Source: Amphiscolops sp. MND2022
Taxonomy: Eukaryota
Length of the DNA stretch: 64,000 bases
Direction: 5' to 3'
NCBI GenBank assembly: GCA_964187785.1
Contig: OZ076409.1
Location: 71,426,001-71,490,000, forward strand
Shown here: positions 1,464 through 64,000 of the stretch, piece after piece
Numbering within the stretch: the stretch's first letter is position 1
Layout of the letters: every line of letters begins with the position of its first letter
Program-made: the position numbers and the translations under genes
Notes under the pieces: model-generated
Seen by the model: the letters and a program-made list of their open reading frames with translations, nothing else
The model's database searches: none
What the model was told of the DNA's origin: nothing

Positions 1464-1471
1464 CTAGGTGG
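1361..1471 (+). other. Conserved terminal core + variable tail + junction (representative of 27 copies)
   Basis: CAACGCCACA...GACG(C/T)SCAC direct repeats, hairpin GGGCATGC-CGAG-GCATGCCC (1396-1415), TTCGACGACGTATG, tail hairpin CGCGGGC-ctac-GCCCGCG, then CTAGGTGG (1464-1471). Confidence 0.9.
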
Positions 1472-3669
1472 GCGGGGGTAATTCCCCAACAAAAAAATCG
1501 GCCGGCGGGTCGGGTCCTGCCGGCCGTCCAAAATCAAAATCCTCCTAGTAGAAAACGGCATGTCAAACGAGCTATTTTTTTATTTAACCGTTAGAATTTG
1601 GGTTTAGATTGCATGCGGCCATGAAATGGCCATACGAATGGAAGTTCCTGCTGACGTTTTGCGATTGAAACACTTTATAAAAAGTTATGGCCAATTTGTC
1701 ATTCACCTAGAAGGGCAAAATGAGGAAAATTTTAACAAAGTCACTGATAACTCAAAATGTAATAATTTTTGGACTTTGACAGTGAAACAAGCTTGGAACT
1801 GTCATTTCGTGGCTGTGGCATTGCACTGAACACAAAAGATGTAAAGTTTTCACATTTTTTGAAAATTCGACATTTTTGAATTTTTTTTCACTACTATCAG
1901 TACACTATATGTCAAAAACGCCTCTGAAAAAAATTATTATTTGCTTAAAATTAGAAACCTTGGTATCCATGGTTTCCGTCAGTACCTACTCGCTGCCAAA
2001 CGCTCAACAGTTTGCATCCAATGTGAAAATATAATTTTTTTCGAGGTCATAGGTGTTTCACAAGGATTTCTCAACTTAGTATCTATTTACAAATTGGTCA
2101 TTTTGAACACATTATTTTCATCGAAGCGTGTCAGATACCACCCTAATGCTCACGAATGGGCCTACTGGCAACGTTGGAACCATTTTTAGTAATAGAAAGT
2201 ATTAAAAAAATATTTTCACCCGGTCTTCAGTCATTTTTCAGACATTCGGTACTTAACTTAGAAAAATTTCGCATCAAAAACCCATATTTGGTAGGGTCGA
2301 AATTTGAAATTCAGTTTTTTATGCAAAATTATTAACTCTGACGTAACCAGTGGAGCCCATGATACTCAAAAACACGATTGGGACTGGTATCAGTGGCTCC
2401 AATAACATATGAGCCGCGATAAGACGTTATTCAGAGCAAACGCTCTAAATCGAAGTAAACATCTCTGAAGCCTGGGATCACAGTGAAATGTGATATCACC
2501 AAAAGTTTACTCTTTTTTGTCAATCACTATGTACACAGAGTGCGTAGGGTGAGTTTCAGGACTATAATGAGGTTTTTGAAGTAATCGCGCTGCTCAAGGG
2601 GTGGTATGAGACTATTTTTTCCCATATACTACTACATTTCCATAAATTTGCAGTCCATTGTCTTGGAAAGATAACTTCACAAAAACAATTTTTCTACTCT
2701 ATTCAGTTATTAGAATAAAGTTGAACACTGTGGTTGATCAGAAATGCTCAATTCTTATGGTTTTTAAAAAAATTCCTTCGCATTCGTTACATTTGTGGAA
2801 GGAAGGTTATCAGTAGCTCCAAAAAAACGAAATTTAGCACGAACAGACATGCAACGATGCAAAGCAAAAACGTTTTTACAACTTCCGACGTCATTATTTT
2901 ACCCAAGAAGTTCGAAATTATCATTCGCATGCTGTCATTCGCTATATATACGATCGCGGTCAATTTACAAACATTTAGATTTCATTGTTCTGCTTGAAAA
3001 CCAATTTTTGTCAGGTCGAAATTTTAAATTTTGCCTGGGGAGCAATACCCTTCACGCTGAAGTAAACAGTGGGGCCCAAGTTACTCAAAAACAAGAAAGA
3101 GACTGCTACAATATGTCCTAATAACATATAGACCACGATAGTACGTTTTTCACACAAAAAACTCTCATCCGAAGTAAATATGTTGAAAGCTTTTAATCAC
3201 CGTGAGAAGTGATTTCATCAAAAAATAACTCTTTTTTGTCAATCACTATTTACACAGAATTTGTAAAGTTAGTTTGAGTCATGAAATGAGGCTTTACCGT
3301 AATATGGGTTGCTCAAGGTGTTATATAAGACAAAAACTTCCTCTTTTCTACTAGATTCTTCAAATATTTCAACCCTTTGTCACAATAAGTTAATATTCAA
3401 AATCTCTTTGAAATGTATCTTTATGTTGGGGTGAAGTCTAAGAACAATAACTATGATCGAAGAATGCTAGTACTGGTGTTTGAACCATGTCCGGATGAAC
3501 AAATCACAAAATCATCAAAAAATTGTTCCCTTTTTTGGTTATTTTGGCAGTACTAAAAATGTTAGCCGATAAATAATTTTTTCGATGGCACCATTGGATT
3601 CCTCTCAAAAAAATTGTTATATGACCTGTGTAATAACCCCGTATCTTTTCAATTTAAATATATTTAAAA

Positions 3670-5040
3670 AGCCAACTATTTTGACCAAAATCCTAAAAAT
3701 CATACCAATTCCTAAAAATTTTCAAATGCACCCCATTTGACGTATAAGATAAGCACAGAAAACTATCATATACCGATCAACTCTACTCCTATTGTAGATT
3801 ATTAGAATTTTGTTTAGAATGAATTTTGATGAATATTAAAAAAAATTTGAACCCTCCAAAAATGGGCCAAAATTACACGAAAAAATTGACCTTAAAATAC
3901 CAAATTGTCAAAAAATCATCAAAACCCAGGCTTCTTGGGGTTCTATCAACTCCGCGTGGTCAACAGAGTATGCTAAAACAGGTTTTACCCGTTTTTGAGC
4001 AATATGTGAAAAAACCGACATTTTTGGGAAAGAAAAACATACCATTTCCTAAAAAAATTCAAATGCACGTCATTTGCCGTATTAGAATAGCACAGAAAAC
4101 TATCACATACCAATCAACTCCACTTTCATTGCAGATGAACAGAATTTTGTTTAGAATAAATTTTACCGGATAATAAAAAAATTTGAATCCTTTAAAAATG
4201 GGCCAAAAATACACGAAAAAATGGACCTTAAAAATTTAAAATGTCAAAAAATCATCAAAACAACAGCTTCTTGGGGTTCTATCAACTCCACGAGGTCCAC
4301 AGAGTATGCTAAAACAGGTTTTACCCGTTTTTGAGCAATATGTGAAAAAACCGACATTTTTGGGAAAGAAAAACATACCATTTCCTAAAAAAATTCAAAT
4401 GCACGCCATTTGCCGTATGAAAATAGCACAGAAAACTATCACATACCAATCAACTCTACTTTCATTGCAGATGAACAGAATTTTGTTTAGAATGAACTTT
4501 ACCGGATAATAAAAAAATTTGATTCCTTCTAAAATGGGCCAAAATTACACGAAAAAATGGACCTTAAAATTTTAAAATGTCAAAAAATCATCAAAACTAC
4601 GGCTTCTTGGGGTTCTATCAACTCCACGTGGTCCACAGAGTATGCTTAACCCGGTTTTACCCATCTTTGAGCAAAATGTGAAAATACCGACATTTTTGGA
4701 AAAGAAAAACATGCCATTTTCTAATAAATTTCAAATGCACGCCATTTGCTGTATGAGAATAACACAGAAAGCTGTCACATACCGATCAACTCTACTTCCA
4801 TTGTAGATTATCAGAAGTTTGTTTAGAATAAATTTTGAAGGATAATAAAAAAATTTGAATCCATCAAAAATGGGCCAAAATTACACAAAAAAATTGACCT
4901 TAAAATATCAAAATGTCAAAAAATCATCAAAACCACAATTTCTTGGCGTTCTATCAACTCCATATGATACCAAACCAGGTACTGCCAATCGTTTGAGTTA
5001 TAATAAAAAAACATCTTTTTTGGCAAGAATTCCATACCAT
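3670..5040 (+). repeat. ~336-bp tandem repeat, about 4 copies, inside U1
   Basis: Anchor (A/G)CCA(T/A)TT..TAA..AA.TT.CAAATGCAC at 3704, 4041, 4377 and 4713. Confidence 0.85.
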
Positions 5041-5251
5041 AAATAATAATCATGTTCCATATAAGAAGCGAATCATTTCAGATATATACCCTGTTCATTT
5101 TTTAAATATTACCGGTTATTAATTTAATAGATGTTTTGAATGTGAGCTTCCTAAAAGGTTCAGGTGTGATGATACGTAAATCGAACCTTAGTTTCATCGA
5201 AATCTCAATTGAATATGTCCAATCTTAACCATCAGATAACAAGAAACACTT

Positions 5252-5294
5252 AAGTACATTCCATCTCCCCATCGGGGGAGATGAGAATGTACTT
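5252..5294 (+). other. Type B internal hairpin (representative)
   Basis: AAGTACATTC-CATCTCCCC-atcg-GGGGAGATG-a-GAATGTACTT imperfect inverted repeat; one copy in every 1.27-, 2.19-, 2.37- and 4.76-kb cassette. Confidence 0.85.
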
Positions 5295-6222
5295 TCGAGA
5301 AGCCAAATACGTCCAACATTCAAACTTTTGTAACTTTGTATGTAACTCCTGAAACGAAGAAGGAATAAAATTGTTTCTGGTACATCGATGAGTCTTTACT
5401 TCAGCTTCTATTTCTGCTGAACAAAACCATTCGACTCTTTTGCCGGAGTTAAGATCGATTGTATTACCCAGTGAACAAAGGCATGACTGAAAACGTTTAC
5501 TACTTTGTTCATAATTTTCCGGCCTTCCGAAATGATGAAACGTCCACATAACTAAGATAGCAAGTGAATGACTGCGAAATGCACCTTATTAGATGAGGTA
5601 AATAACGTGTAAAACTCTCCTTTATCCTAACATGAGGTTGAGTAATGATCATTTGAGAATAGTTTGATATGTGAATACAATAGTATAAAACAAGTACATT
5701 TTATATGAATAACGCCGTGGAAAGCGTTCAGAAAGGACAGTAGGCTTGTTTGGAACATGTATGTGTGGTGTCCCTTGGTGGCGTTCGCTTAGTGTATATG
5801 TCGAGGGGTATTCGAGTTGTTATGAGAGAATTTACACACAAGTCTTTTGTTTTTTGGTTTTTTTAAAAAGTCGTTAAGTACCTGCATTCTATCCCCTTCT
5901 CAGAGATGACGTGAAGTTACGTTTGCTAAATAAATGTCATCTGAAGATCACACTCCCGACGAAATTAACTATCTTAACACGTGTTTAGAATTTTAAATAA
6001 ACAACCGTATAAGATTTTTATATTTCATTGAGTTTGATGAAGTCTTTTGTTCTTCTCACTACTATTTCAACCAATACACATATCCGTTACCATATCACAT
6101 GTCTCCATTAGTACAACGCCACATAGCGTTCCGACGCCCACAGTCTGTGGGCATGCCGAGGCATGCCCTTCGACGACGTATGGCAAATGGAGCCATGCCC
6201 GCCGTCTTTACGGCGGTAGCGG

Positions 6223-9013
6223 CTAGGTGGCGGGGGGCTGTCCCCAATAGAATATAGTGAGGTAGGGTAGGGTTCCCTACCGAACATTCAGTACTGAAAG
6301 ACTCTTGTAGTATGAAAATTTTTCGATGTTTTGAGACCGATTTCGGATTCCACCCGTCAGAAGTTTATGATTTTTTGGCCCCCACCCAGATTTTGGGCAC
6401 TGATCGCCCCCCACCAGGTTCCATACCCGTGGTTTCGTTGTGACGGGTACACGAGCGACCGTTAGGGGTCAATCAGGGGGTAAAATTTATAAAAGTGTGA
6501 ATAACTTTTCCCCCCGTCGTTTTAGCAGGTCCGGTCACTAGTAAAGGTTTGTTGGGCATCATGCAGTGGGTACGGGGGGCCAAACAAAAATTTTCTATCT
6601 TGCACCGTTACGGACTTGGCCCCCCGCCCAAACCGCTATTTTACCGGAAATTGCACTTTTTGACCGGGAAGGAGTCGTCTGAGCGCGGAGTCATTTGGTA
6701 ATGTTTTGTAGAGCATCTGGAGACGTGGTGGGGGACATGTAGTTTGCCGACCCCAGTTTACCCCTCGGACGGGAAATGACCGTTATGTGAGTTTCAAAAA
6801 TGCCCCCCTCCAATTTTCCCCGCAATTTCCGGTGTGAAGGAGTCGGAATAGCGTGTCGAGTGCTATATATCAAAAGTAGCTTTAAACAAGGACCTATCAG
6901 AAACATGTGGTTTGGGACCCTTTGAACGGACCCGTTAGCCGGAAATAGGGTGACCGCCTCCTTTTTTTGGTGGTAAAACCGTAAAACGGGCATTAAAGTG
7001 TAATTATCTCGTGAACGCGTGGAGCAATCGTGTCCATCACTCCTACAAGGTTTCATACCCATGACATGGTGCCTTCAGGGGGGCAAACAGATCAGCGCTA
7101 TCTATCACCGTTACGGACTTTGCCCCCCAGCCTAACCGCTATATTACCGGAAATTGCCCTTTTTGACCGGGAAGGAGTCGTCTGAGAGTGGAGTCGTTAA
7201 GTAATGTTTTGTAGAGCATCTAGAGACGTGTTGGGGGACATGTAGTTTGCCGACCCCGGTTTACCCCTCGGACGGGAAATTACCGTTATGTGAGTTTTAA
7301 AATTGACCCCCTTCAACTTTCCCCGTTATTTCCGATGTGAAGGAGTGAGGGTAGCGCGTCGGGTGTCATATATCAAAAGTAGGTTAAGACAAGGACCAAC
7401 CGGGAACATGTTGTTTGGGACCCTCTGGCCCAACCCGTTAGCCGTTATAAGGGTGATCGCCTCCTTTTTTTACTGCTAAAACCGGAAAACGGGCATTGAG
7501 GGGTAAATATCTCGTGAACGCGTGGAGCAATCGTGTCCATCACTACTACAAGGTTTCATACCCATGATACGGTGCCTTCAGGGGGGAAAACAGATTACCG
7601 CTATATATCACCGTTACGGACTTGGCCCCCCAGCCTAACCGCTATGTGACCGGAAATGTCATTTTTTGAGCCAAAAGGGTTGGTCCCAGCGTGGGAACGT
7701 CAGGTAACTTTATGTAGAACTCAATGAGACGAGTTGGGGGATATAGTTTTAGTCACCCCCCGTTGACCCGTTGGACCGGAAACGAACGTTATGTAGTGAA
7801 AAATGTTATTTTTATACTTTTTGAAGGCCATTTAGGGCAGGAAGTATCGGTAATATGTCTTTGGACAGTATACAATGAAAGTTTTGGTGTGAAACGAGCA
7901 ATCTGAAATAACCGTTATTATGATTCGGAAGTCACACTAACAGCGAAAATGACCGTTATGTAGTGAAAATTTTTTTCACAATTTTTTTTATTTTCGATAG
8001 GTCCTTCAAGCCAGGAAGTAGCTGTATTAGGTCTTTGGTCACTTTATGATGATTGTGGTGTTGTGAGATGACCGTACGAACTTGACCGTTATAATGCCCC
8101 TGAAGTTGCGGCGGCACGAGAAATTTCAGAAAGTTTGTCTTTTCTGTGTTTTGTTGGAATAAACATGTAATTTCATCAAACCAAAGTGCATTCAGGGTGT
8201 CAGAAAGCTTCAAGAAAAGAATTTGACAGGAAACATGAGGTGAGAAATAGGAAAATGCCACGGAAATCCAACCCGTTGGGAAGTAAAGATAATAAATTGG
8301 TTTGGAAGTGCCAATCGACGTGTAATTGCGGATCATAGCTACGATATTGTCTCTTTTGTTTCTTTTTGAAGACTTTGAACATTTTCACTTTATCAGCTTG
8401 AAGTTTCGACTCCATTAACTCAATAACCGTTACAATATGATAGCCCTCAAGTTGACCTTGTGTCAACTTGAAAGGGCTATCCTTTCACAACTGCGCAGCG
8501 ACAGTGTGATTGAGTGTTTTTGTTATTATCCATAGCCAATTTGAACTTCAACAAAAGTTTAACCATAGTTAAAAAATTTCATATGATTCTTTTAAAAGGA
8601 TAAGTAAGAAACAAATGTTTGACAAAAAACTTTCAACCTTTAATTTGTGGACTGAATATCAGGAAAACCATGTCTCCTAACGTTGTTGGATGAAATTCAA
8701 CATGATTCTTTTAATAGGATAACAAAGTTTGACAACATATTTTTTTATATTCTTTCGTTGGTGCTCTACATTTTAGGAAAACGAATTTTCCAACAAATAT
8801 TGTTGGCTGATGCCTGTTCATAGTGGCTTGAAAATTTCACCAACTGTAATGCTTTTTATCAAAGGTGAAACCGCTCCTTACCGTCGCATAATGTAATTCA
8901 AGCCGACGCCCACATGCCAACATCAACGCCCACCGTCCGTAGGCATGCCGAGGCATGCCTTTCGACGACGTATGCCAAATCACGCCCCTGCGAGGTCACT
9001 AAAGCGGTAGCGG
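6223..9013 (+). mobile_element. Cassette U2 (2791 bp, 2.79-kb class)
   Basis: Near-identical to U18 but with different neighbours on both sides; type A hairpin 8439-8481; core hairpin at 8941. Confidence 0.65.
6600..7660 (+). repeat. ~503-bp tandem duplication (2 copies plus start of a third) inside U2
   Basis: CACCGTTACGGACTT at 6603, 7106 and 7609. Confidence 0.85.
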
Positions 9014-9021
9014 CTAGGTGG
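8904..9021 (+). other. Terminal core, A-T compensatory variant
   Basis: AGGCATGC-CGAG-GCATGCCT: the outer G-C pair is replaced by A-T. The same variant occurs at 19671, 48566 and 56895. Confidence 0.9.
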
Positions 9022-10993
9022 GCGGGGGTAATTCCCCTTCAAAAAATTCGGCCGGCGGGTTGGGTCCTGCCGGACGTCAAATAGTGTGAAACATCCAGTA
9101 GGAAACGGCGACATAAATCAGCGATTTTAAAATTTAACCGTTAGAATTCGGACTTGGAGTGCATGCGGCCCCAAAATGCCCATACGAATCGAAGTTCCTG
9201 CTGACGTTAAGCGATAAAAACATTTTATAAAAAGTTATGGCCCATTTTACGTTCACCTATAAGGGTAAAATGAGTAAAATTTTTACTAAGTCGCTGATAA
9301 CTCAAAATACATTAATTTTTGGACTTTGACTGTGAAACAAGCTTAGAACCTTCATTTCGTGGCTGTGGCATTGCACTGAACACAAAAGATGTAAAGTTTT
9401 TACATTTTTTGAAAATTCGACTTTTTTGATTTTTTTTCACTACTATCAGTACACTATATGTCAAAAACACCTCTGAAAAAAATTTTTATTTGCTTAAAAT
9501 TGGAAACCTTGGTATCCATGGTTTCTGTCGGAACCTACTAGCTGCCAAACACCCAACAGTTTGCATCCAATGTGAAATTAAAAATTTTTTCGAGGTCTTA
9601 GGTGTTTCACAAGGATTTCTCAACTTAGTTTCAATTTACAAATTGGTCATATTGAACACAATATTTTCATCGAGGCTTGTCGGCTATAACCTTAATGTTC
9701 TAGAACGGTCCCACTGGCAACGTAGGAACCATTTATAGTAATAGAAAGTTTTAAAAAAAATTTTTCATCCGGTCTTCGGTCATTTTTCAGTCATTCGGAA
9801 CTTAACTTAGAAAATTTTCGATCAAAATACCCAATTTTGTCAGGTCGAAAATTCAAATTCAGATTTTTAAGCAAAATTATTAACTCTGACGTAACCCATG
9901 GGGCCCATGATACTCAAAACAACGATTGACACTGGTATCAATGGCTCCAATAACATATGACTCGCGATAAGACGTTATTTTGAGCAATACGTCTCAATTG
10001 AGGTAAAGATCTCGCAAACCAGCGATCACTGTGAAATGTGATTTCATCAAAAATTTACTCATTTTTGTCAATCACTATGTGCACAGAATGCGTAGGGTGC
10101 GTTTCAGCAATATAATGAGGTTTTTGAAGGCATCGAGTTGCTCAAGGGGTGGTATGAGACATTTTCGTCCCATATACTACTGTATATTGCAAATTTTTTT
10201 AGCCCATTATCTGAAAAACTAACTTGACAAAATACTTTCAACTACTTTATTCAAAGGTTACAATGTAGATGAACCCAGTGGTTGATCAGAAACTTTCATC
10301 TCTTTCGTTTTCCGAAATAATTCCCTTCCAATGTGTTACATTTGTAGCAGGAAAAAAACCGAAACTAAAAAATACGCGATTTTGCTGAGATAGAATCGCA
10401 ACGGTTGCGCCTAAAATCTCTTTAAATACTTCTAACGCAACTTTACGGACCCAAATTGATTGAAAATGCCATTCACAATGCTGACATGTGCTCTTTCTAC
10501 GATCCTGGCTGTACAAGTTTTGCATTTTTTTCAAGTACCTGTTAACTGAACATTGTGATAGCCTTTCAAGTTGGCCTTGTGTCAACTTGGGAAGGCTGTC
10601 ACATCAAAAAACTGTCAACAAAATACCACTCGTTTATAGGAAATTGCTGTCGATGCCTAATTTTGTGATTCGATCATGTCGTGAGTTCCTTCCATCAGGT
10701 CAGCTAACAATTGGATTCAGTGTTTGATAAGAACCTATGATTTTTTTGACAATTTTCGTTTTTTCTTGCAAAGAAAAAGTACAAATAAACAATATAAAAC
10801 AAAATTGTAACCTTTAGGAAGTTTAACTTTACCTTTTTTTAACCGTTACCATCACTTTTGACCCTGTACGACCTCGCAATGTCCTTATTACAACGCCACA
10901 TAGTGTACCGACGCCCACAGTCTGTGGGCATGCCGAGGCATGCCCTTCGACGACGTATGCCGAATGCACTGCGGCTACGCCCGCAGTCACCGG
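9014..10993 (+). mobile_element. Cassette U3 (1980 bp, 2.0-kb class)
   Basis: Junction-bounded; type A hairpin ~10554-10603; core hairpin at 10926. Confidence 0.6.
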
Positions 10994-52215: not shown

Positions 52216-54590
52216 CTAGGTGGTCGGGGTGTTTCCCAGCCGTTTTGGCCGCGCGGGGAGGGACCCGTTCAGCGGCCCAGGTAATTAAGATTTTGTCATT
52301 CAAAAAATGACCCATCCGGAAAGCGATTTCGAAACCCACCCGTAGGATCCCTCTGAATTTTTGCATGCACCTCCGTATAACAGATGTAAGTTAAAGTCAG
52401 CAAGAGCGTTTTCAGTTCTAAACGGGGAATGTTGACCAAAAAGCGCAATTTATGTCCAAAAAAATGCAATTTTTCGACTTTTTTATTTTTGACGGCCAAC
52501 AGCTCTTTTCCAGATGCCCGCCCAAGTCATAAATCGGAGTAAGCTTTTGTTGGGCACTTCGTGAAGAATCTTTAGGGTGATTTTCGTTTCATTCCTATTT
52601 CCTGACGTTGACTTATGGTTGGGTGAAAAAACGCAACATTTGTTACAAAAAGTGCTTTTGGTACTCAAGGGCCCATAACTCGTGACATAATCAATTGAGC
52701 AAGTTCGTGTATACTTACGATTTTGTTGCCTATCTATAGGAGAACAAACAAGCAGTGACAAAACTTTCTGTGGGAAGACGTCAAAAAAAGATATCACAGG
52801 TTTTATAATCAATAAAACAGTGTTTTTCGGTTGTCGTGGAAAAAATGTAAAAGGGTGGCATTTTTCGGCTGTTTAAGGTAGCGGGTATTTTATTGCTGTT
52901 ATTAACTCACCTCTAGTATTCATTTACTTGGATGATTTTCAATTTTGATAAATTACATGATAAACTTCATTTTTTGCGTCACCAATATTGACACCCACGA
53001 TTACAGTCATTTTTTTCGCGTTCACGTTTTTGAGTGGATATAACTTTTTTCCAGTGCGTTTTACGGTCATCATCCAGGAGCACAAAATTGTTGGCCGGCT
53101 TAAGCAGAAAATATATGGTAAGTTTAGAGTCATTTGAAACGTTTTTGAAATGTCCAGAGATGCACAAATTTACAGTTTTTTTGCCCACAAAACACTATTT
53201 TACGAAACCCAAAACTTTTTGCCAAAAAAGTCAAACTTTGTCCACACAACTTAGATTGCAAGTGAATGCATGCGGAGAGTACTTGAAATGGTGGGAAAAA
53301 TGAGCTATAGAACGCTCATTTACGACAACGTGACGTGGACTTAGGACATTTTGAAAAAGTACGAAAAAAAAGAACAACGGTTCCAAAACAATCAGTTTGT
53401 AGTAAATGGCCAATAACTCCATACACAACCTTCCGCGCAAGCTAGTGTCCAAGTACGTTTTTGTTACCCGTGAACAGCGCAACAAATAAGTAAAAGTAAA
53501 ACTTTATGTAGAGAATCGTCGGAGAAAGAAATAACGGGATTTTTTGTCACATTTAAGAGACAAAATTGAAAAATTAGTCTATTCCTGGCATTTTACCTAA
53601 ACTTTTTCGACAGTACACATACAGGAGGTAAAATTCGCCCAATACCATGCCTAACAAAACTATTTGATCCATTGGCCGCAATTTGAGCGTTCCACCTTTC
53701 CCCAGTCATAAATTATGGGACTTCGAAATTTTTCAAAATTTCCATTTTTCAACAAAATTTCAAATTCAGGCCTCCCAAAGGTAAGAAAGTTCCACACAAC
53801 TAGGATTGCAAGTGGTTGCATGTGGAAAGTGCTCGAACCGACGAGAAAAATGGGCTTTAGAACGTCTCTCTATCGTAACCTGACGTTGACTTATGATGTT
53901 TTGAATGTGAGACTGCTACGTGCTCGAGAAGTGTAAGTGGAACATATGTCTCGTTGAAAACTCATCGGAATACATTCAATGAACCCAATCACCCTAAATT
54001 GCAGTTTCCTAGTGCAACAACGTCTGTCAAGGACCTTTTTTGATAAGAGTCGAAATTATTATTAAATTCAGTTAGCAAGAAACACTTGAGTACATTCTCA
54101 TCTCTCCCCATCGGGGGAGATGAGAATGTACTTGCTAAAACGGCTTCTTTGTTTTCATGCGATGGATTCTGTGCCTTGCCACACATATAACTTTGTTTTG
54201 TGTGACCTTGCATTTATACTTTGACTTGTCATGATAAATTTCTTCTCGTAAATTTACGTAAATCAACAATGCATCTACAATGCATCTTCAACGTCAAAGC
54301 CAAATAAAAATAGCTGGCCACCGTCCGTAGGCAGAGCAAGGCATGCTTTTTGATGACGTATGCCGAAACACAAACGCGAACAAAACTGCTGAAAATCAGA
54401 AACAGTGACCAACAATTTTGACTGTTTGACATATGGTAGGTTTTTATATGGAACTTACACATCACTTATATTTCACAACATTTCAGCTGACGCCCACCTA
54501 CCACTATCAACGCGCACCGTCAGTGGGCATGCCGAGGCATGCCCTTCGACGACGTATGGCTAATACTTTCAGCGACGCCCCCGCCTACCC
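52216..54590 (+). mobile_element. Cassette U21 (2375 bp, 2.37-kb class)
   Basis: Similar to adjacent U22; type B hairpin 54088-54133; core hairpin at 54525. Confidence 0.6.
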
Positions 54591-56961
54591 CTAGGTGGTC
54601 GGGGTTGTTTCCCAGCCAATTTTGCCGCGCGGGGAGGGACCCGTTCAGCGGCCCAGGTCATTATTTTTTTACATTAAAAAAAACGATACCCCGGAAAGCG
54701 ATTTCGAAACCCACCCGTAGGATCCCTCTGAATTTTTGCATACACCTCCGTATAACAGTTCTAAGAAAAAGTCAGCAAGGGCGTTTTCAGTTCTAAACGG
54801 GGAATGTTGACCAAAAAGCGCAATTTATGTCCAAAAAAATGCAATTTTTCGACTTTTTTATTTTTGACGGCCAACAGCTCTTTTCCAGATGCCCGCCCAA
54901 GTCATAAACCGGAGTAAACTTTTGTTGGGCACTTCGTGAGGAATCTTTAGGGTGATTTTCGTTTCAATCCTATTTCCTGACGTTGACTTATGGTTGGGTG
55001 AAAAAACGCAACATTTGTTACAAAAAGTGCTTTTGGTACTCAAGGGCCCATAACTCGTGACATAGTCCTTTGAGCAAGTTCGTGTATACTTACAATTTTG
55101 TTGCCTATCTATAGGAGAACAAACAAGCAAAAACAAAATTTTCTGTGGGAAATCGTCAAAAAAAGATATCACAGGTTTTGTACTCAATAAAACAGTGTTT
55201 TTCGGTTATCGTGGAAAAAATGTAAAATGGTGGCATTTTTCGGCTGTTTAAGGTAGCGGGTATTTTATTGCAGTTAATAACTCACCTCTAGTAGTCATTC
55301 ACTTGGATGATTTTCAATTTTGATAAATTGCATGATAAATATCATTTTTTGCGTCACCAATATTGACACCCACTATTTCAGTCAAATTTTTCGCGTTCAC
55401 GTTTTTCAAGGGATATAACTTTTTTCCAGTGTGTTTTACGGTTCTCACACAGGAGCACAAAATTGTTGCCCGTCTTAAGCGGAAGGCATATAGTAAGTTT
55501 GAAGTTGTTTGAAGCGTTTTTGAAATGTCCAGAGATGCACATTTGACAGTTTTTTTGCCCACGAAACACTATTTTTCAAAACCAAACAGTTTTCGCCAAA
55601 AAAGTCAAACTTCGACCACACAACTTAGATTGCAAGTGGATGCATGCGGAGAGTACTTGAAATGATGAGAAAAATGAGCTATAGAACGCTCTTTTACGAC
55701 AACCTGACGTGGACTTAATATAATTTGAAAAATTACGAAAAAAAAAGAACAACGGTTCCAAAACAATCATTTTGTAGTAAATGGCCAATAACTCCATACA
55801 CAACCCTCCGCGCAAGCTAGTGTCGAAGTACGTTTTTGTTACCCGTAAACAGTGCAACAAATAAGTAAAAGTAAAACTTTATGTAGATAATCGTCGGAGA
55901 TAGAAATAACGGGATTTTATATCACATTTAAGAGACAAAATTGAAAAATTAGTCTATTCCTGGCATTTTACCTAAACTTTTTCGACAGTACACATACAGG
56001 AGGTAAAATTGGCTTAAAATCATGCCTAACAAAACTATTTGATCCATTGGCCGCAATTTGAGCGTTCCACCTTTCCCCAGTCATAAATTATGGGACTTCG
56101 AAAATTTCCAAAATTTCCATTTTTCAACAAAATTCCAAATTCAGGCCTCCCAAAGGTGAGAAAGTTCCACACAACTAGGATTGCAAGTGGTTGCATGTGG
56201 AAAGTACTCGAACCGACGAGAAAAATGGGCTTTAGAACGTCTCTCTATCGTAACCTGACGTTGACTTATGATGTTTTGAATGTGAGACTGCTACGTGGTC
56301 GAGAAGTGTAAGTGGAACATATGTCTCGTCGAAAACTCATCGGAATACATTCAATGAACCCCAATCACCCTCAATTGCAGTTTCCTAGTGCAACAACGTC
56401 TGTCAAGGACCTTTTTTGATAAGAGTCGAAATTATTATTAAATTCAGTTAGCAAGAAACACTTGAGTACATTCTCATCTCTCCCCATCGGGGGAGATGAG
56501 AATGTACTTGCTAAAACGGTCTTTTTGTTCCCATGACAGGCGTTCTGTGCATTGGCACATAAATAACTTTGTTTCGTCTGACTTTTCGGATAAACGTTGA
56601 CTTCTCATTAAATTTCCCGTCATTACTTTACGTAACATAAACTTTCTACCATTCACCTTCAACTTCAAAGCCACATAAATTTAGACTCCTATCGTCGAAA
56701 AACATACCGCGGCATTTTTTTCGACGACGTATGCCGAAAAACAAACGCAAACAAAAGTGCTGAGATTCAAAAACAGTGACAAACATTTTGACTATTTGAC
56801 ATATGGTATAATTTTATATGGAACTTACACATCAATAATATTTAACAACAATCCAGCTGACGCACACATACCAACATCAACGCCCACCGTCTGTAGGCAT
56901 GCCGAGGCATGCCTTTCGACGACGTATGCCTAATCCACTCCCCGACGTCCCCACTCCGCCC
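54591..56961 (+). mobile_element. Cassette U22 (2371 bp, 2.37-kb class)
   Basis: Similar to U21; type B hairpin 56464-56509; core hairpin at 56895. Confidence 0.6.
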
Positions 56962-59140
56962 CTAGGTGGATGGTATTTTATAACAATTAAAGTGTTTTTT
57001 TCCGGAGTTTGTGGCTTTGGAAAAAACAAAAGGCGAGAAATTGGGCACTCCAGGCTGAACCTAAAAACACCCTAAAATTCGCCCGATTTTTTTACGATCT
57101 CGAAACCCAACCGTACGATTTGGCTGAAAATTTGCATGTGGCTCCTAATCAATGAGTAATGAAAAAGTGTAGAAGTGACTTTTCCTGGGAAAATTGTTTT
57201 TGTTGCACTTTTTGCGCAATTTTTGACCCATTGTTGCGTTTTTTATGTCACTTTCGACTTTTCAGGCAAAAAACTCATAGATGCTTTGATCCTAGCGCAT
57301 CCAGTGTTTCGACCAAAAAGTTGCAACATGGTCTTTTACGTACGTTGTGAAAATTTGGTAGCCATCGTATCACCCCCCACTGAGTTAGAGGGGAACTTCC
57401 GGTGGATTTTAGCACCCTAAAAACAAGGACCTCCTAAACTTCAGCATGAAGCCGTAGTTTTAGCGTGCTCATAACCTGCTGAAGTTTTGTTGGGCATGTT
57501 GAGATAGTCATGATAGCATGTGTTTAGTTCACCCCCCATCACCCCCTGGACCGGAAATGAACTTTTTGTGCACTATCATTCCGGAAGTCTCCAGTTTCAC
57601 CGTTAAGCAGTCCTTGTACGAGCAACTACCAGGTCATCAAAATTGAAGTACCACCTGAGGTCAACGTAGTGACTACGTGTTGTCCAGTCATAGGTTCCTC
57701 TATGACCGGAAATGGGGTCAAAACCCCCTTTTTTGGTTGTTTTTTAACAATTTGACTAGTGTTTGGTCCACAATCAAGTCGCGTAAGTCCATTGAATCAG
57801 TGAGAGCAGAAATTGTATGTTCACTGCGTAGACATAACTGACTCTGACAGATACCGGAAGTAACCCCCCGTGACCGGAAGTTGTCATTTTTGACCGGAAA
57901 TGGTCCAAAATAAAGCGTAAAATCAGTTTTTCACTGCTTTTTAAAGTCAACTTATTACTTTTTCAATCTTCGCGAGCTTGTATTCAGATTCGTTTGTGTT
58001 ACCCGTGCACTTTGCAACGAATATACATCTGTAAAGTTTTCTCTATATTATAGTCTGATAGAGAAATAACGTGTTTTTGGGACTTTTTTCAAAATTATTA
58101 GACTATATCTGTCATTTTGACCCAACGTTATTCAACAGTACAACCACAGTGGTTAGTCTCTGCCCAAATATATGCCTAACAAAACTATTTGGCCCATTGG
58201 CCTCAGTTTGAGCGTTCCAGCTTTGCGTGTTCATTAGCTAAGGGACTTGAAAAATTTTCAAACTTTTTCAAAAAAAATTTTTTCTCATATTTTTGTCTCC
58301 CAGAGTGAAGAAACTTTCACACAACTAGGATTGCTACTGGATGCATGTGGCAAGCCCTATAATTGAAGGGAAAAATTCCGCTTAGAACGTCTCTTTATCG
58401 TAACTTGACGTTAACGTATGGTGCTTTGAATGAGAGCTTGATAAGAGGTCGAGAAGTCAAAGTGTGTGAATGGAACGTATGTCTCGTCGCAAACTCATCG
58501 GAATACATGCAATGAACCCCAATTGTCCTGAATTGCAGTTGCCTACTGCAACAACGTTTTTCTGGTACATTTTACTCTTTTTCATAAGTGTCAAAATTAG
58601 TTTTAAATTCAGTTAGCAAGAAACAATTGAGTACATTTTCATCTCTCCCCAGCGGGTGAGATGAGAATGTTCTTGCTAAATGCCAGGTACTACGGCCTCC
58701 TTTTGTTTTATTGCGATGCATTCTCTGCTTCAGCACATAGATATTTTATTTCGCTTGATTGTTTGTATACTCTCTGACTTGTTATTATAAATTTCTCGTC
58801 ATTACTTTACATAAATTTGCAACCATGAAACGGTATCGTCAACGCCACATACATTTAGACGCCACCATTCCGTAGGTATGTCGAGGCATACCTTTCGATT
58901 ACGTATGTCAAAACGCAAACGCGATAAAAAATGCTGAAAGTCTGAAACAGTGACAAACAATTTTGACTATTTGACATATGGTATGTTTTTATATGGAAGT
59001 TACGCATCACAGACATTTCACAACTTTCCAGCTGACGCCCACATACCAACATCAACGCCCACCGTCCGTGGGCATGCCGAGGCATGCCCTTCGACGACGT
59101 ATGCCAATTTCTATATATCTACACCCAATTGCGGTAGCAG
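56962..59140 (+). mobile_element. Cassette U23 (2179 bp, 2.19-kb class, mosaic)
   Basis: Head and 3' half resemble U19/U26, middle resembles U24; type B hairpin ~58629-58674; core hairpin at 59070. Confidence 0.6.
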
Positions 59141-60530
59141 CTAGGTGGTCGGGTATTTTTTTTTACTCGTAGATGGCGTTTGCGAGGCTTTGGGGAGGGC
59201 CCCGTGCCGAGCCTGTACCGAAATTTACCACATACCAGAAGTGTCCGATTTAATCGAGATCTCAAAAACTAACCGTTAGAATTCTCTGAAATTTTGCATG
59301 TGGCCCCTAATCAATGAGTAATGAAAAAGTGTAGGAGTGATGGTTGCTGAAAAACTTGTCTTTGTTGCACTTTTTGCGCAATTTTTGTCGCATTGTTGCG
59401 TTTTTTATGTCATTTTCCACTTTGGAGGCAAAAAAGTCATAGATGCTTTGCTCCTAGCGTATCAAGTGTGGAGCACGAAAAGTTGCAGCATCTTCAATTA
59501 CGTATGCTGAGAAAATTTGGTTGCCCTCGGATTACCCCCCACAGAGATAGAGGGGTGCATCCGGGTATTTTTGACCCCTAAATTTGGGAAATTGCTAATT
59601 TTCGTAATAAAGCCGTAGATTTAGCGCGTGCACACCCTGCTGAAGATTTGTTAGGCATTTTGAGATAGATCCGATGACATGCGTTGAGTTCACCCCCATC
59701 ACCCCCTTGACCGGAAATGAACGTTTTTGTGCACTTTCAGACCGGAAGTCTCCATTTTCACCGGTAAGGAGGCATTGTACGAGCAACTAGCAGGATATCA
59801 AAAGTGAAGTATAACCTGGGGTCAACTTAATGACCACGTGTTGTCCAGTCATGAGTTTCGCTATGACCGGAAATGGGCTTAAAACCCCCTTTTGGTAGTA
59901 TTTTCATCAATTTTCCTTGTGCTTGGTCTACATTCAAGTTGCGTAAGTCAGTTGAACCAGTGAGAGCATAAAATATATATTCACTGCGTAGTCGTAACTG
60001 ACACTGCCAGATACCGGAAGTAACCCCCTGTGACCGGAAGAGGTCAATTTTGACCGGAAATGGTCCAAAAAGTAGCGTAAATGCAGTTTTCAATGCTTTT
60101 TAAGGTCAAGTTATTAGTAATTTTCAATTTGAATGCTTTTTTCCACGCAAAAAGCTAACATCGTTGCATGTTTTGCTAAAGATCGGAAAAGTTATCACCA
60201 TTATCACCCCCGATAGCCTTTCAAGTTGACCTTTGGTCAATCTTGAAGGCTATCTGTTCTGAAAACGAAAAATAGTGGAATTTTGTTTCCTCCTTTCTCT
60301 TGATATTTTTCCTTCAAGTCAATTTGTCAAAAGAAAGACATTTGTTCAACTGAGTGATCTGAAACCTGTCCAGAGGTGTCACCCGGACGAATACCAATTC
60401 AAGCTGAAGTACACAAATCAGGGTAGTATTAGACATCACACACTCCTACCAACTCCCACCGTCTGTGGGCATGCCGAGGCATGCCCTTCGACGACGTATG
60501 CCAAATAGCGCTACAGGGCGCCCACATTTG
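59141..60530 (+). mobile_element. Cassette U24 (1390 bp, 1.39-kb class)
   Basis: Sequence diverged from U17/U20 but same length; type A hairpin 60212-60254; core hairpin at 60467. Confidence 0.6.
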
Positions 60531-61800
60531 CTAGGTGGCCGGGAACTTTTTTTCCTGCATTTTTCTGTCCAATTGGGGGAGGGGCCCCAAGTGGCTGTTA
60601 TCCGGTTTTACTACCTACCCTAAACACGCTCAAAAAATGACGATCTCGAAAACCACCCCTTAGATTTTCCTGAAACTTTGCATACAGGCCTAGAATCAAA
60701 TCCTGAGAACTATTTCCTACTGGCGTTTTTCCGAATTTTTTCAAAAAGTTGGTCAAAAATGCAACAAAAGTTGCCAATGGACATAAAAAACGCAACTTTT
60801 CGACTTTGAGGGCTCATAACTTTTTCCAGAGTGCCCGGAGCGGTTCGCACGTGGACAACAATATTGCTCAGCATTGTCGGATGAGTGCTTGGACAAATTT
60901 TGGTTTGAATCGGATGAAAATTGACTGAGAAATGAACGCAAATTTTTGTGCATTTGTTGCAAAAACCAGTTTATCTCTGCCATTTTCGCCCAAAATTTTT
61001 CCCAGAGCCTTTATAGGAGGCAACCCCTGCCCAATTTTCTGCCGAGCAAACCCATTTGGCCCTAAATACGGAGTTTCAGCATTCTAGGAATCCCGGGCGA
61101 AAAGTTGTGGGACTTAGAAAATTTTCAAAAAAACGCAAAAATTGTAAAAAGTAACTTCAGGCGCCCCAAAGTCACAGAACTTCCACACAACTAGTATTGC
61201 AAGTGAATGCATGTGGAAAGTACTTGGATAGACGAGAAAAATGAGCTATAGAACAACTCTGTAGCTTAATCTGACGTTGACTTATGACATTTTGAGTGTG
61301 AGCATCTTATAGGATTTTAATGTCAAAAATGCGATTTTGTAAGTCATGTCTCATCAAAAACTCATCGCAATACGTTCAATCATCCCCATAGCTGTTCAAT
61401 TACCGTGGCTTAGTAGAGCAACACCATTTAATGTCTTTGCACCCATTTTGAAAATTTTCGAAATCGTCTTATTCGTCCGATATCACGAAACAGTTGAGTA
61501 CATTCCATCTCCCCCTTGGGGGGAGATGAGAATGTACTCGCCAAAGACCTGATATAATGGCCCATATTGTTTTTTATTTAACCTTTCTCACAATATTGCA
61601 CACGGATAGCTGTGTTTGGTAAAAGTTTTCCTTTGCACCATGTCTCCAGAAGCAAAACCACTTCTTTAGCTTACTACTACCCAAACATCACTAACGTCAA
61701 CGCCACATACTCGCATCAACGCCCACCGTCTGTGGGCATGCCGAGGCATGCCCTTCGACGACGTATGCCAAATAGCGCCACAGGGCGCCCCCAATTTCTG
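60531..61800 (+). mobile_element. Cassette U25 (1270 bp, 1.27-kb class)
   Basis: 5' part differs from U16, central part related; type B hairpin 61496-61539; core hairpin at 61734. Confidence 0.6.
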
Positions 61801-63989
61801 CTAGGTGGAGGTTATTTTATAATAATTAAAGTGTTTTTTTCCGGAGTTTGTGGCTTTGGAAAAAACAAAAGGCGAGAAATTGGGCACTCCGGGCTGAACC
61901 GTATACACTCAAAATTCGCCCAATATTTATACGATCTCGAAACCCAGCCGTACGATTTGGCTGAAAATTTGCATGCGGCTAAAAAATCAGATTCTAAGAA
62001 CTATTTCCTGCTGACATTTTTTTGAAATTTTTGTGTACGTTTCCCCCCCGCCCCCTAAAGGGGTCAATTTTCCCCAATTTTGCACTTATGAGTCAATTTC
62101 TCAAAACTGGTGTATCTGAGCGTCTTCCCGGCGGGGACAACTTTTAACAAGCGCTCTTCAGTAGACCTTTTGGACTTTTTACTTTGGTAGTACGTTCACC
62201 CCCCAAGGAGGAAATGGCGTTTTTGTGACTTCCGGTGGAGACTTTTTTCACCCAAAAAATAGAAATAAGCCAGTTTTGAGCAGGAAGGAGTGGATTTAAA
62301 GTGTCTGTACCCTGCTAAAAATTTGTTGGGCTTGTAGCGATATATCTCATACCAAGTCTGGTTTTCACCCCCAAACCCCCCTTGAGACCAAAATTCACCC
62401 AAATTGTTTTACCTCTGTTTGTAGTTTTTTTGCAAAATGTCGTCATTTCCATGGGTAAGGCGTTGAATTAGGGACTCCTAATAGGGTACCAATGTTCAAG
62501 TACACTTGCAGTGCAACTGAGTGACCCTTTTGGGGCCTCTCCTGTGTTCGGCAAGGACCGGAAGTGGTGTAAACCCCCCTTTTTTGACGTTTGTTGATCT
62601 TGAGACTCGCGCTTAGATGACGTTTATGTCGCGCAAATCCTACAAACCAGTATTAGGATGACATGCTAGCCAACTAGAGAGCACTAAGGGAAACTATACT
62701 ATACCGGAAGTAACCCCCCGTGACCGGAAGTTGTCATTTTTGACCGGAAATGGTCCAAAACATAGCGTAAAAGCAGTTTTTCATTGCTTTTAAAGTCAAC
62801 TTATTACTTTTTTCACTCTGCGCGAGCGTGCCTTCAGGTTCGTTAGTGTTGCCCGTGCACACTGCAACAAATGTACATCTGTAAAATTTTCGCTATAATA
62901 TCGTCGGAGAGAGAAATAACGGGTTTTTGGGATTTTTTTCAAAAATATTAGTCTTTATCTGTCATTTTTACCCAACGTTATTGAACAGTAGAACCACAGG
63001 GGTTAGTCTCTGCCCGATTATATGCCTAACAAAAGCATTTGTCCCATTGGTTGCAGTTTGAGCGTTCTAGCTTTGCCTGGTCACAAGTTAGGAGACTTGA
63101 AAAACTTTCAAAAACATTTCCGAAATTTTTTTCTAAACGTCACGTCTCCCAAAGTTAAGAAACTTCCTCACAACTAGGACTGCAAGTGAATGCATGTGGT
63201 AAGGCCTATAAATGGAAAGAAAAACTCCGTTTAGATTGTCTCTTTATCGTAACGTGACGTTAAGAGATGTTACTTTGAATGTGAGTTTGATAATGCGTCG
63301 AGAAGTAAAAGTGTGTAAATGGAACCTTTGTCTCGATAAATACCCATCGCAATACATGCGATGAACCCCAATTACCCTCAGTTTCAGTTGCTTAGTACAT
63401 CAACGTCTTCCAAGGACCTTTTATCTACTTTGAAAAGTGTCGAAATCATTATTAATATCAGTTATCAAGAAACACTTGAGTACATTCTCATCTCTCCCCA
63501 TCGGGTGAGATGAGAATGTTTTTGCTAAAAGTCAGGTACTACGGCCCCCTTTTGTTTTAATACGATGCATTCTCTGCTTTAGCACACAAATATTTTATTT
63601 CGCCTGATTGTGTGTATACTCTCTGACTTGTTGTTATAAATCTCCCGTCATTACTTTACATAAATATACACAAAAAATCATTATTGTCAACGCCACATAC
63701 ATTTAGACGCCCACCATTCCGTAGGTATGTCGAGGCATACCTTTCGATTACGTATGTCAAAACGCAAACGAGATAAAACCTGCTGAAAGTCTGAAACAGT
63801 GACAAACAATTTTGACTATTTGACATATGGTAGGTTTTAATATGGGAGTTACACATCACTGGCATTTCCCATCATTCCAGCTGACGTCCACATACCAACA
63901 TCAACGCCCACCGTCCGTGGGCATGCCGAGGCATGCCTTTCGACGACGTATGCCAACTTCTGTATATCTACACTCAATTGCGGTAGCGG
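61801..63989 (+). mobile_element. Cassette U26 (2189 bp, 2.19-kb class)
   Basis: Body closely similar to U19 but with a different tail; type B hairpin ~63478-63523; core hairpin at 63919. Confidence 0.6.
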
Positions 63990-64000
63990 CTAGGTGGTCG

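Follow-up and report, generated by a model that had tools for sequence, protein, structure and literature searches.

Non-autonomous Helitron-like cassettes of discrete lengths in Amphiscolops sp. MND2022, and their likely insertion into their own joints

The window analysed here, a 64,000-nucleotide stretch of contig OZ076409.1 (assembly GCA_964187785.1, positions 71,426,001 to 71,490,000), lies in a multi-megabase stack of gene-less cassettes interspersed with longer coding partners; large clusters of this kind were seen on three chromosomes only. Within the window, 27 junctions of the form CTAG^GTG (the caret marks the joint), all on the plus strand and each 61-74 nt past a conserved core, delimit 26 units (Table 1), with boundaries fixed from host-flanked ends and one empty site; a self-search of the window returned only two local inverted repeats. 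A preliminary description had placed these 26 units in seven length classes, and its figures are reproduced exactly: from junction to junction, 1270 and 1276; 1387, 1390 and 1390; 1979-1996 (n=10); 2179, 2187 and 2189; 2371 and 2375; 2790 and 2791; and 4759-4767 (n=4).

Table 1. Units, junctions and terminal features of the window (positions in nt from its first letter)
Feature	Position	Strand	Remarks
Tail core GGGCATGCCGAGGCATGCCC	1396-1415	+	hairpin; recurs ahead of all 27 junctions
Junction CTAG^GTG	1464-1470	+	inferred nick and insertion site; one element's CTAG end abuts the next one's GTG start
Remaining junction starts	6223, 9014, 10994, 12981, 17745, 19741, 21730, 23713, 25705, 27694, 29689, 34451, 36430, 41197, 43186, 44462, 45849, 48639, 50826, 52216, 54591, 56962, 59141, 60531, 61801, 63990	+	
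5' head	1468-1530	+	two hairpins; found in every unit family
U1	1468-6226	+	4759 bp; 4760 class
336-bp tandem array within U1	3696-4962	+	counterparts 15216-16566, 31924-33190, 38665-39930
U2	6227-9017	+	2791 bp; classmate U18 45853-48642
U3 and U4	9018-12984	+	1990 class
U5, U12, U14	12985-17748, 29693-34454, 36434-41200	+	other 4760-class units
U6-U11, U13, U15	17749-29692, 34455-36433, 41201-43189	+	other 1990-class units
U16	43190-44465	+	1276 bp; 1280 class; classmate U25 60535-61804 (1270 bp)
U17	44466-45852	+	1387 bp; 1390 class; classmates U20 50830-52219, U24 59145-60534
U19	48643-50829	+	2187 bp; classmates U23 56966-59144, U26 61805-63993
U21 and U22	52220-56965	+	2375 and 2371 bp

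The 4760-class units are homologous to the 1990 class in their 5' part and enclose a tandem array of 336 bp repeated 3.8-4.0 times, while the 1990 class carries an internal hairpin (H2) some 445 nt upstream of its 3' end (at 10561 and 12545, for example). The 2185 class (U19, U23 and U26) joins a 1390-type 5' half to a 1280-type 3' half and, 196 bp ahead of its true core, carries a second, degenerate one; the 3' part of U21 and U22 is homologous to this class at a 200-bp offset, with a like core duplication of 195-196 bp. U2 contains a 503-bp internal repeat, and its relative is a 1975-bp family found outside the window. The 1280 class, marked by another internal hairpin (H1; 44161 and 61501), is the most frequent in our wider sample (357 of 751 units). 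The window holds no open reading frame longer than 143 aa and a 3-nt periodicity of conservation is absent in seven of seven families, which together rule out coding bodies; as for known RNAs in the window, Rfam gave three chance-level hits and a tRNA scan none.

The heads are remotely homologous across families and vary while the tail core stays constant. The second head hairpin is capped by a GGG(T/G)AGGG.CC motif and the stems vary with compensation, two-sided changes being found in six of 12 predicted pairs when 13 window heads were compared. A 32-mer spanning the tail core has 4,057 exact copies genome-wide; the core stands one mismatch from the two-half-site p53-family consensus, and we take it, by sequence, to be a candidate site. 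The terminal hairpin is strong in core tails and weak in several other tail types. Units end in CTAG (700/751) or CTGG (51/751), under a junction rule that required CTRG-like ends. For one tail type the next base is G at 945 of 970 places; 24 of its 25 exceptions read CTAG^AT or CTAG^TT, the 3' host beginning AT in 18 and TT in six. For one head type the base just before it is G at 805 of 810 places, and eight host-flanked heads were preceded by CTAG (five), CTNG (two) or another sequence (one). Host-flanked solo copies begin with GTG, not TC. At a SINE site seen both filled and empty (the one empty site), the sole difference is GTG...CTAG, with no bases added; this pair and two solo copies, few cases as they are, show no target-site duplication. 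The same two solo copies have CTTG or CTCG as 5' host yet CTAG at the 3' side, so the 3' CTAG travels with the element. A second empty site, sought for the array at C1:29.53 Mb, gave no match, and a head was missing within 7 kb at 11 of 20 end loci.

The same junctions flank all 11 units above 6 kb (12.0-24.7 kb) within these arrays, and each of these units carries a RepHel reading frame of 2,207-2,853 aa (two frames being needed in two elements) with the layout HUH-Pif1-GIY-YIG, the C-terminal GIY-YIG being SLX1-like. Pfam places PIF1 and GIY-YIG above cut-off and Helitron_like_N at 27.5 bits against a cut-off of 28.9; the H-x-H and Y-x-x-K-Y motifs are invariant in 16 relatives. In every one of these partners the opening 643-1,825 bp match a short class at 83-98% identity, and the junction is shared as well; most partners have in common an accessory protein with an RPA/POT1-like OB fold. 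The transposase resembles Helraiser in the helicase only, and less than it resembles cellular Pif1. An HUH Rep and Pif1 in the partner, termini common to autonomous elements and the lack of target-site duplication identify the superfamily: the window units are non-autonomous Helitron-like elements, with a GTG head of two hairpins and a CTAG/CTGG tail. Since the partners encode Helitron-type transposases, a circular intermediate is plausible.

With canonical Helitrons (HLE1; Helraiser) these elements share a RepHel protein with HUH/two-tyrosine motifs and a Pif1 helicase, the absence of target duplication, an RPA-like accessory gene and a 3' CTRR end, there often placed after a hairpin and here with a hairpin that is strong in core tails. 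Head-to-tail Helitron arrays are also reported for plants and bats (PMC11417382, PMC6431247, PMC5876387). HLE1 elements, however, begin with TC and enter A^T targets, whereas here neither was found: the start is GTG with two hairpins, the target CTAG then (A/G/T)T (5' host CTAG/CTNG in 7/8), the transposase ends in an SLX1-like GIY-YIG, and the arrays mix many families in shuffled order instead of repeating a single one. HLE2 elements (Helitron2, Helentron, DINE-1) likewise have hairpins at both ends and internal tandem repeats in non-autonomous copies, and a section of PMC11417382 gives one plant HLE2 family a GIY-YIG domain; their T^T target and short asymmetric terminal inverted repeats (11-17 nt) were not seen here, and the partners gave no Pfam hit to AP endonuclease or DUF6570. 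Chromosome-end Helitrons of Paramecium, in the sections of PMC13085455 that describe them, form a distinct clade with proposed sequence-specific, one-orientation insertion, internal satellites and ORF-less derivatives; their target is the host telomeric repeat, whereas here it appears to be the element's own joint, and fixed length classes, present here, are not among the features described in those sections. IS91-type rolling-circle elements insert in a fixed orientation beside a tetranucleotide without duplication (passages of PMC10288648), but they are bacterial and have neither a helicase domain nor megabase cassette arrays.

Among 549 near-identical pairs of cassettes, 532 share neither neighbour and none shares both, near-identity between neighbours is confined to 12 of 575 adjacent pairs, and the arrays lack higher-order repeats. 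Satellite DNA with higher-order repeats is thereby rejected, as neighbours are not co-amplified. Cassettes move singly and, because they also sit 3' of CTAG, they are likely to re-use their own end-to-end joints as insertion sites. No RNA run was listed as carrying the sequence, and the contigs of two low-share sequencing runs cover parts of U7 and show no joints, a result that counts neither for nor against circles.

To follow the lengths beyond the window, we used a sample of 751 units from ~1.5 Mb of arrays on five contigs. Of the 740 units below 6 kb, 726 fit 13 narrow length windows, drawn from the first 595 units and spanning 520 of ~4,000 bp; the 14 off-class lengths are each a singleton, and the 13 classes range from 1.0 to 4.9 kb, with no integer ratios among them. 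Of units fetched after the length windows were set, 152 of 156 fell inside existing classes, so the discreteness claimed from the window extends beyond it and a continuous distribution does not describe the data. Nor are the classes just recent identical copies: the 1035, 1280 and 1390 families keep length within ~1% at 52-71% identity, the 1280 family having 40 variants (mean identity 66%, length SD 10.7 bp) and the 1390 family nine (71%, SD 7.6). The preliminary description had further held that length is kept where sequence is replaced; the length is indeed kept, but the pairs it named are diverged or mosaic homologues, not replacements. On a scoring that gives ~47-50% for unrelated sequence, U17 and U24 (1387 and 1390 bp) show 61% global identity, U16 and U25 (1276 and 1270 bp) 61%, and U19 and U23 ~55-60% from 150 to 900 and 75-92% outside that stretch, their offsets staying within ~15 nt. 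Similarly, 2790 is arithmetically 2 x 1390 and 4763 is 2 x 2375, but sequence comparison shows that neither the 2790 nor the 4760 class consists of dimers.

Across 118 disjoint unit pairs, 28 indels of at least 4 bp stand against 8,598 substitutions, and in 12 control repeat pairs 22 against 525; such indels are therefore ~13-fold rarer per substitution in units than in other repeats. The control comprises few pairs (12-18), with dead transposon copies and satellites mixed together, and the unit pairs still have ancestry in common. The substitution spectrum of the units equals that of the control, which rejects deamination-type hypermutation. Selection on total length, proposed beforehand as the main force, fares poorly: small indels do not cancel inside alignments (0.8-1.7 for net squared over sum of squares), and indels of 4-9 bp are depleted despite a class tolerance of ~25 bp; the constraint has a local look. 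Variance ratios from an anchor test were below 1 in eight of nine families, which would point to compensation if its anchors are sound; the test is weakened by misaligned tandem repeats and by the common ancestry of members, and we place no weight on it. AA/TT recurs with a period of 10.1 bp in pooled bodies at ~4.5 times the control amplitude; indel sizes show a bump at 8-11 bp in units and controls alike, 10-bp periodicity of column conservation appears in only two of seven families, and A/T runs show hardly any extra conservation. Gene conversion, it may be added, could deplete indels too. Unalignable middles of equal length occur in two cases, the 1975 and 1988 families (with the 503-bp repeat in one of them only) and 1276 and 1280; local spacing alone does not account for these.

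Drawing this together, our best reading is of Helitron-like elements of a self-targeting type, selected for their internal spacing. We think it reasonably probable that each class represents one or a few Helitron-type cassette families that are copied out as circles and insert at their own joints, their length held by selection against multi-base indels in a phased body. The partner's HUH domain would nick after CTAG; the intermediate would be a double-stranded circle, as for Helraiser, whose joint may double as the best target, such that arrays would grow by one-orientation self-insertion. Only copies in which the bent body retains its spacing would be amplified further, so that substitutions would build up while length stays steady and off-class chimeras remain single; this spacing may matter for where nucleosomes sit, for escape from silencing, or for the geometry of an origin. 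For C. elegans, passages of a preprint (bioRxiv 10.64898/2026.08.08.743475) describe Helitron-derived PATCs with a 10-bp A/T periodicity and propose DNA bending and resistance to silencing; those originate in dead minisatellites of host introns, whereas here the phasing sits in apparently mobile, kilobase cassettes. A bolder version, possible but to our minds doubtful, sees a distinct Helitron lineage, likened to a eukaryotic integron, in which many helpers and more than 12 gene-less circle families would replicate as small chromatinised episomes and dock into their own joints, forming megabase arrays of cassettes, with the circle's physical geometry and total length being selected and unrelated stuffer converging on allowed sizes.

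A non-autonomous transposon is expected to require no more than its ends and to let its filler drift. In these cassettes 1-5 kb of non-coding filler changes over time with almost no multi-base indels, so that a constraint of a physical kind on Helitron circles becomes testable; we found no description of such a constraint in the literature searched, most subscription papers and Repbase entries lying outside its reach. The lineage looks like a rolling-circle transposon that targets a sequence and inserts into itself, and dozens of its transposase frames are long and open. A self-inserting Helitron could build megabase repeat arrays with no need for unequal crossing-over, and the partner transposase is a candidate site-specific HUH integrase.

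Selection could instead act on the whole circle through chromatin geometry, with an integer number of nucleosomes at ~196-200 bp and different bodies converging on the allowed lengths; we regard this as unlikely, for all that it would accommodate the equal-length middles. Length sharing by unalignable families is somewhat above chance, but the p-value depends on the tolerance (0.002-0.014 at 2.5%, a non-significant 0.11-0.18 at 1.5%). For six of the seven window classes the nearest multiple n x 198.6 is at most 12 bp away (p 0.009, post hoc), and ~200-bp steps do occur (the core duplication, 2185 to 2375, 4733 to 4933), yet the commonest class (1280) does not fit. A 198.5-bp ladder predicted beforehand caught one of nine non-window classes within 15 bp, where 1.4 were expected and five of the nine were already known at the time of the prediction; a half-step of 99.25 bp caught four of nine, then one of two, and was dropped; and among periods from 80 to 260 bp none reached significance with either 12 or 16 classes (p 0.16-0.66).

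Distinctly unlikely, in our judgement, is an unselected body whose founder length persists as in-register gene conversion and recombination, acting among thousands of neighbouring or circular copies, spread substitutions and mosaic patches but repair indels. The many mosaics (U23, U6, U14, and the partners with a short class's 5' end), the very large co-oriented arrays and the control-like substitution spectrum would all suit it, whereas the want of higher-order repeats and the rarity of near-identical neighbours do not; conversion should moreover fail at 52-59% identity, where families are nevertheless length-fixed, and it gives no reason to expect 10.1-bp phasing in families that cannot be aligned.

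We hold it highly improbable that circles are packaged, satellite-like, in a particle of the partner or of an infecting virus whose size sets the lengths, as had been suggested along with an analogy to the half-genome sizing of geminivirus satellites. The sizes are discrete, and the partners contain SGNH-like ORFs (weak Pfam hits), a domain that a review proposes to help other elements cross membranes (PMC6431247). However, no capsid-like ORF was found among unspliced ORFs of at least 120 aa in the 11 partners, the conserved accessory ORF folds like RPA/POT1, and no relatives were found in viral contigs; the width of partner lengths and the lack of integer ratios and of dimers likewise oppose packaging. 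The geminivirus analogy fails with it, the partners not being twice the size of the 2790 and 4760 units, and a geminivirus-type viral satellite is rejected on the 12-25 kb partners, their OB-fold accessory ORF and the lack of a capsid-like ORF among those of at least 120 aa.

That the classes are merely recent bursts of identical copies deserves almost no credence, given the families that hold length at 52-71% identity and the depletion of indels per substitution, although many near-identical pairs exist and it is true of the 2790 and 3072 classes (length CV <0.1%), the former being simply near-identical copies, with U2 and U18 at 99.8% identity.

Cutting the window at CTAG|GTG junctions reproduced exactly the 26 unit lengths on which the preliminary description had based seven tight length classes. 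The core, a conserved tail motif, was found 27 times in the window, always on the + strand and with CTAGGTG 61-74 nt downstream; besides these 27 sites, the + strand carries no CTAGGTG. No ORF in the window exceeds 143 aa, a tRNA scan found none, and Rfam matches there stayed at chance level. The unit heads form a pair of hairpins in which 6 of the 12 base pairs have changed on both sides, and a second, degenerate tail core sits 195-196 bp upstream of the true one in U19, U21-U23 and U26. The long internal palindromes H1 and H2 of the short cassettes were not seen intact in the 11 long transposase-coding units ('partners') and are possible candidates for a second-strand origin or recombination hot spot.

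Positions of palindromes, cores, arrays and related loci
Feature	Position	Observation
H1 long internal palindrome	window 5257, 44161, 50323	recurs in short cassettes
H2 long internal palindrome	window 1029, 10561, 45506	recurs in short cassettes
Doubled tail core of U19	window 50564 and 50760	
Array region	C1 ~70.46-76.46 Mb (~6 Mb)	each sampled stretch is a cassette array, + strand; dozens of long open transposase frames of diverse lineages (31-100% identity)
Inverted piece of that region	C1:72.446 Mb	
Clusters of transposase candidates in open frames of at least 2,100 aa	C1:70.5-76.5, C2:102-104, C3:2.4-3.9 Mb	
21-kb partner (L003-L005)	C1:71348210-71369477	opens with bp 1-973 of a 1267 unit (98%), joined to the coding body at the H1 centre
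Assembly gap (L028)	C1:23.977-23.980 Mb	two arrays of opposite orientation meet
LTR-retrotransposon-like element (L037-L038)	C1:37.44-37.45 Mb	long ORFs; isolated core fragment without CTAG
CTAG site of tRNA-like SINE (L136)	C2:16.31 Mb	holds a unit
CTAG site of tRNA-like SINE (L079)		holds a tail remnant

The fixed-length feature is real, and extends beyond the window. Among 751 N-free units, sampled non-randomly near known arrays and partner genes under a junction rule that demands GTG, 11 are partners, 726 fall inside 13 length windows (about 1035-1080, 1253-1318, 1390, 1967-2017, 2080, 2185, 2376, 2662-2685, 2791, 3072, 4380, 4716-4776 and 4883-4936 bp) and 14 are singletons, those inspected being chimeras, deletions or missed junctions; windows drawn from the first 595 units accommodated 152 of the 156 that followed. 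The 1.07-Gb genome, in which the window occupies C1:71.43-71.49 Mb, contains 4,057 exact matches to a 32-nt core pattern, and units in the stretches sampled from C1:70.5-76.3 Mb lie on one strand.

Length is conserved past mere descent, as divergent families hold it and indels are depleted. Forty sampled variants of the 1280 family, at a mean identity of 66% (minimum 52%), have a length SD of 10.7 bp; the corresponding values are 7.6 bp for the 1390 family and 10.5 bp for the 1035 family (nine variants and 71% identity each). Disjoint pairs of bodies diverged by 2-12% were compared with 12 pairs of control repeats in the flanking DNA: indels of at least 4 bp were 13-fold rarer in the bodies (28 per 8,598 substitutions vs 22 per 525), those of 1-3 bp occurred at half the control rate, and the substitution spectrum was identical. 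The preliminary description had asked whether indels compensate; net offsets were of the size expected if signs are random (ratio 0.8-1.7), and length is therefore kept by the absence of indels, not by their cancellation. An anchor test, which is affected by repeat misalignment and shared ancestry, leaned towards compensation (ratio below 1 in 8 of 9 families). Through the middles of the 1988, 1975 and 1390 bodies, the SD of length per 100 columns lies for the most part between 0 and 1 nt.

Pairs earlier read as keeping length after 'replacement' of their sequence do keep it despite low identity (U17/U24 and U16/U25, 61% global, have length differences of 3 and 6 bp; the mosaic pair U19/U23 has a middle at 55-60%), but profiles identify remote homologues, not replacements. 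The 1975 and 1988 families have nothing in common beyond the head and a 3' module, whose start coordinate is identical in both; the 1,320 bp of their middles are unalignable (z -0.3), with a 503-bp repeat in one alone. The 1276 and 1280 families are similarly unaligned over 570 bp (z 1.2), and the 1070 families resemble remote homologues (z 1.8-4.0). Such equal-length coincidences are more frequent than expected by chance when the tolerance is 2.5% (p 0.002-0.014) but not when it is 1.5% (p 0.11-0.18), and unrelated middles of equal length remain the part that our account does not explain.

Turning to mobility, one common tail type is followed by G, the start of a head, at 945 places and by another base at 25 (A in 19, T in 6; second base T in 24), and one common head type has a G directly before it at 805 of 810 places. 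Eight host-abutting heads are preceded by CTAG in five cases, CTTG or CTCG in two and neither in one; of 20 end loci, 11 had no head within 7 kb, one lay in an array longer than the stretch covered and one had a partial head. A solo 1,977-bp unit lies inside a tRNA-like SINE, of which an empty copy reads CTAG^AT, so that the insert is exactly GTG...CTAG; a second empty-site search gave no match. Together, this site and the end contexts indicate that the element's own joint matches its target. Cassettes move singly, one unit at a time: in the 549 near-identical pairs whose flanking units are known on both sides, neither neighbour is shared in 532 and both in none, and of 575 pairs of adjacent units just 12 are near-identical. 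Within the window, U2 and U18 are 99.8% identical.

The partners (12,045-24,697 bp) are bounded by the same junctions and occur in the window flanks and other arrays. All 11 carry a reading frame of 2,200-2,850 aa, split over two frames in two, and over their first 643-1,825 bp they are 83-98% identical to a short class; exchange of 5' ends between partners and short cassettes seems to occur. PIF1 and GIY-YIG domains score above the Pfam cut-off and Helitron_like_N is borderline; H-x-H and Y-x-x-K-Y motifs are invariant, the C-terminus is nearest to SLX1, and resemblance to Helraiser is restricted to a helicase-level match. A second ORF, shared by 9 of 11, has a predicted structure (pLDDT 73) that matches the OB folds of RPA, POT1, CST and TEBP, at low TM-scores (~0.2), and a 170-220-aa ORF in five looks SGNH-like by its N-terminal motif, two of these having weak Pfam support and three none. 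Genome-wide, 104 of 508 transposase candidates were scored, with ~69 of 107 rows in open frames of at least 2,100 aa. Relatives at 23-33% identity occur at 23 metagenome loci, of which five also have the OB gene and none has a CTAG|GTG-type junction; no relative was found in viral contigs. The gene-dense metagenome contigs with GIY-YIG-bearing relatives (L191-L212), some with the OB gene, also carry several ORFs of 170-1,050 aa for which no Pfam hit passes the cut-off.

The cassette system works as a Helitron and is a member of the superfamily, and that cassettes and partners together are Helitrons we regard as nearly certain. By the defining features given in PMC11417382, it has neither the 5' TC nor the A|T target of HLE1, and neither the T|T target nor the inverted repeats of HLE2. 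Tandem Helitrons, and GIY-YIG in one HLE2 family, are already in print, as are telomere-targeted Helitrons of Paramecium (PMC13085455) and non-autonomous Helitrons, ~1.5 and ~3.5 kb long, that are associated with centromeres (PMC13404089); self-targeted mixed cassette arrays of fixed length were not described in the literature searched.

What the analysis shows directly is the anatomy of the units, their partners and target, the shuffling of single units, the discreteness of the length classes, the depletion of indels and the phasing. Helraiser nicks the plus strand at the joint and uses double-stranded circles as donors (PMC5876387); by analogy, the partner would nick after CTAG and make circles, which would insert 3' of CTAG(A/G/T)T, existing joints being the richest target. 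We consider it rather probable that lengths are fixed by preferential amplification of copies whose bent-body spacing is intact. AA/TT phasing in the bodies is 10.1 bp, its amplitude being ~4.5x that of controls; the strongest period falls between 9.6 and 10.7 in 12 of 14 families, and codon periodicity is absent from unit bodies; against a simple phase story, an 8-11-bp bump in indel size appears in units and controls alike, and conservation is 10-bp periodic in just 2 of 7 families. The preference might reflect nucleosome placement or resistance to silencing, an effect that has been suggested for PATCs derived from Helitrons (bioRxiv 10.64898/2026.08.08.743475).

Nucleosome geometry as the direct determinant of length, raised earlier, seems unlikely: multiples of 198.6 bp do come within 12 bp of 6 of the 7 window classes (p 0.009, post hoc; phase statistic p 0.14) and a core duplication of 195-196 bp exists, but of nine classes not represented in the window just one fits, and no significant period emerges over all classes. 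A half-step ladder, fitting 1 of 2 on new data, was discarded. A packaging limit fares worse, with no capsid-like ORF found among those of at least 120 aa in the 11 partners and partner length varying twofold, and the 2790 and 4760 units are not doubles: they have no internal joint, and their identity to 1390+1390 and 2375+2371 is that of the background.

Finally, the core tail (window 1396-1415 and its repeats) is one mismatch from the spacer-less p53-family response element consensus in 485 of 595 units (two mismatches in 6), and this p53-family-like core is absent from the 104 non-core tails among them. Such sites number in the thousands, clustered in megabase arrays.
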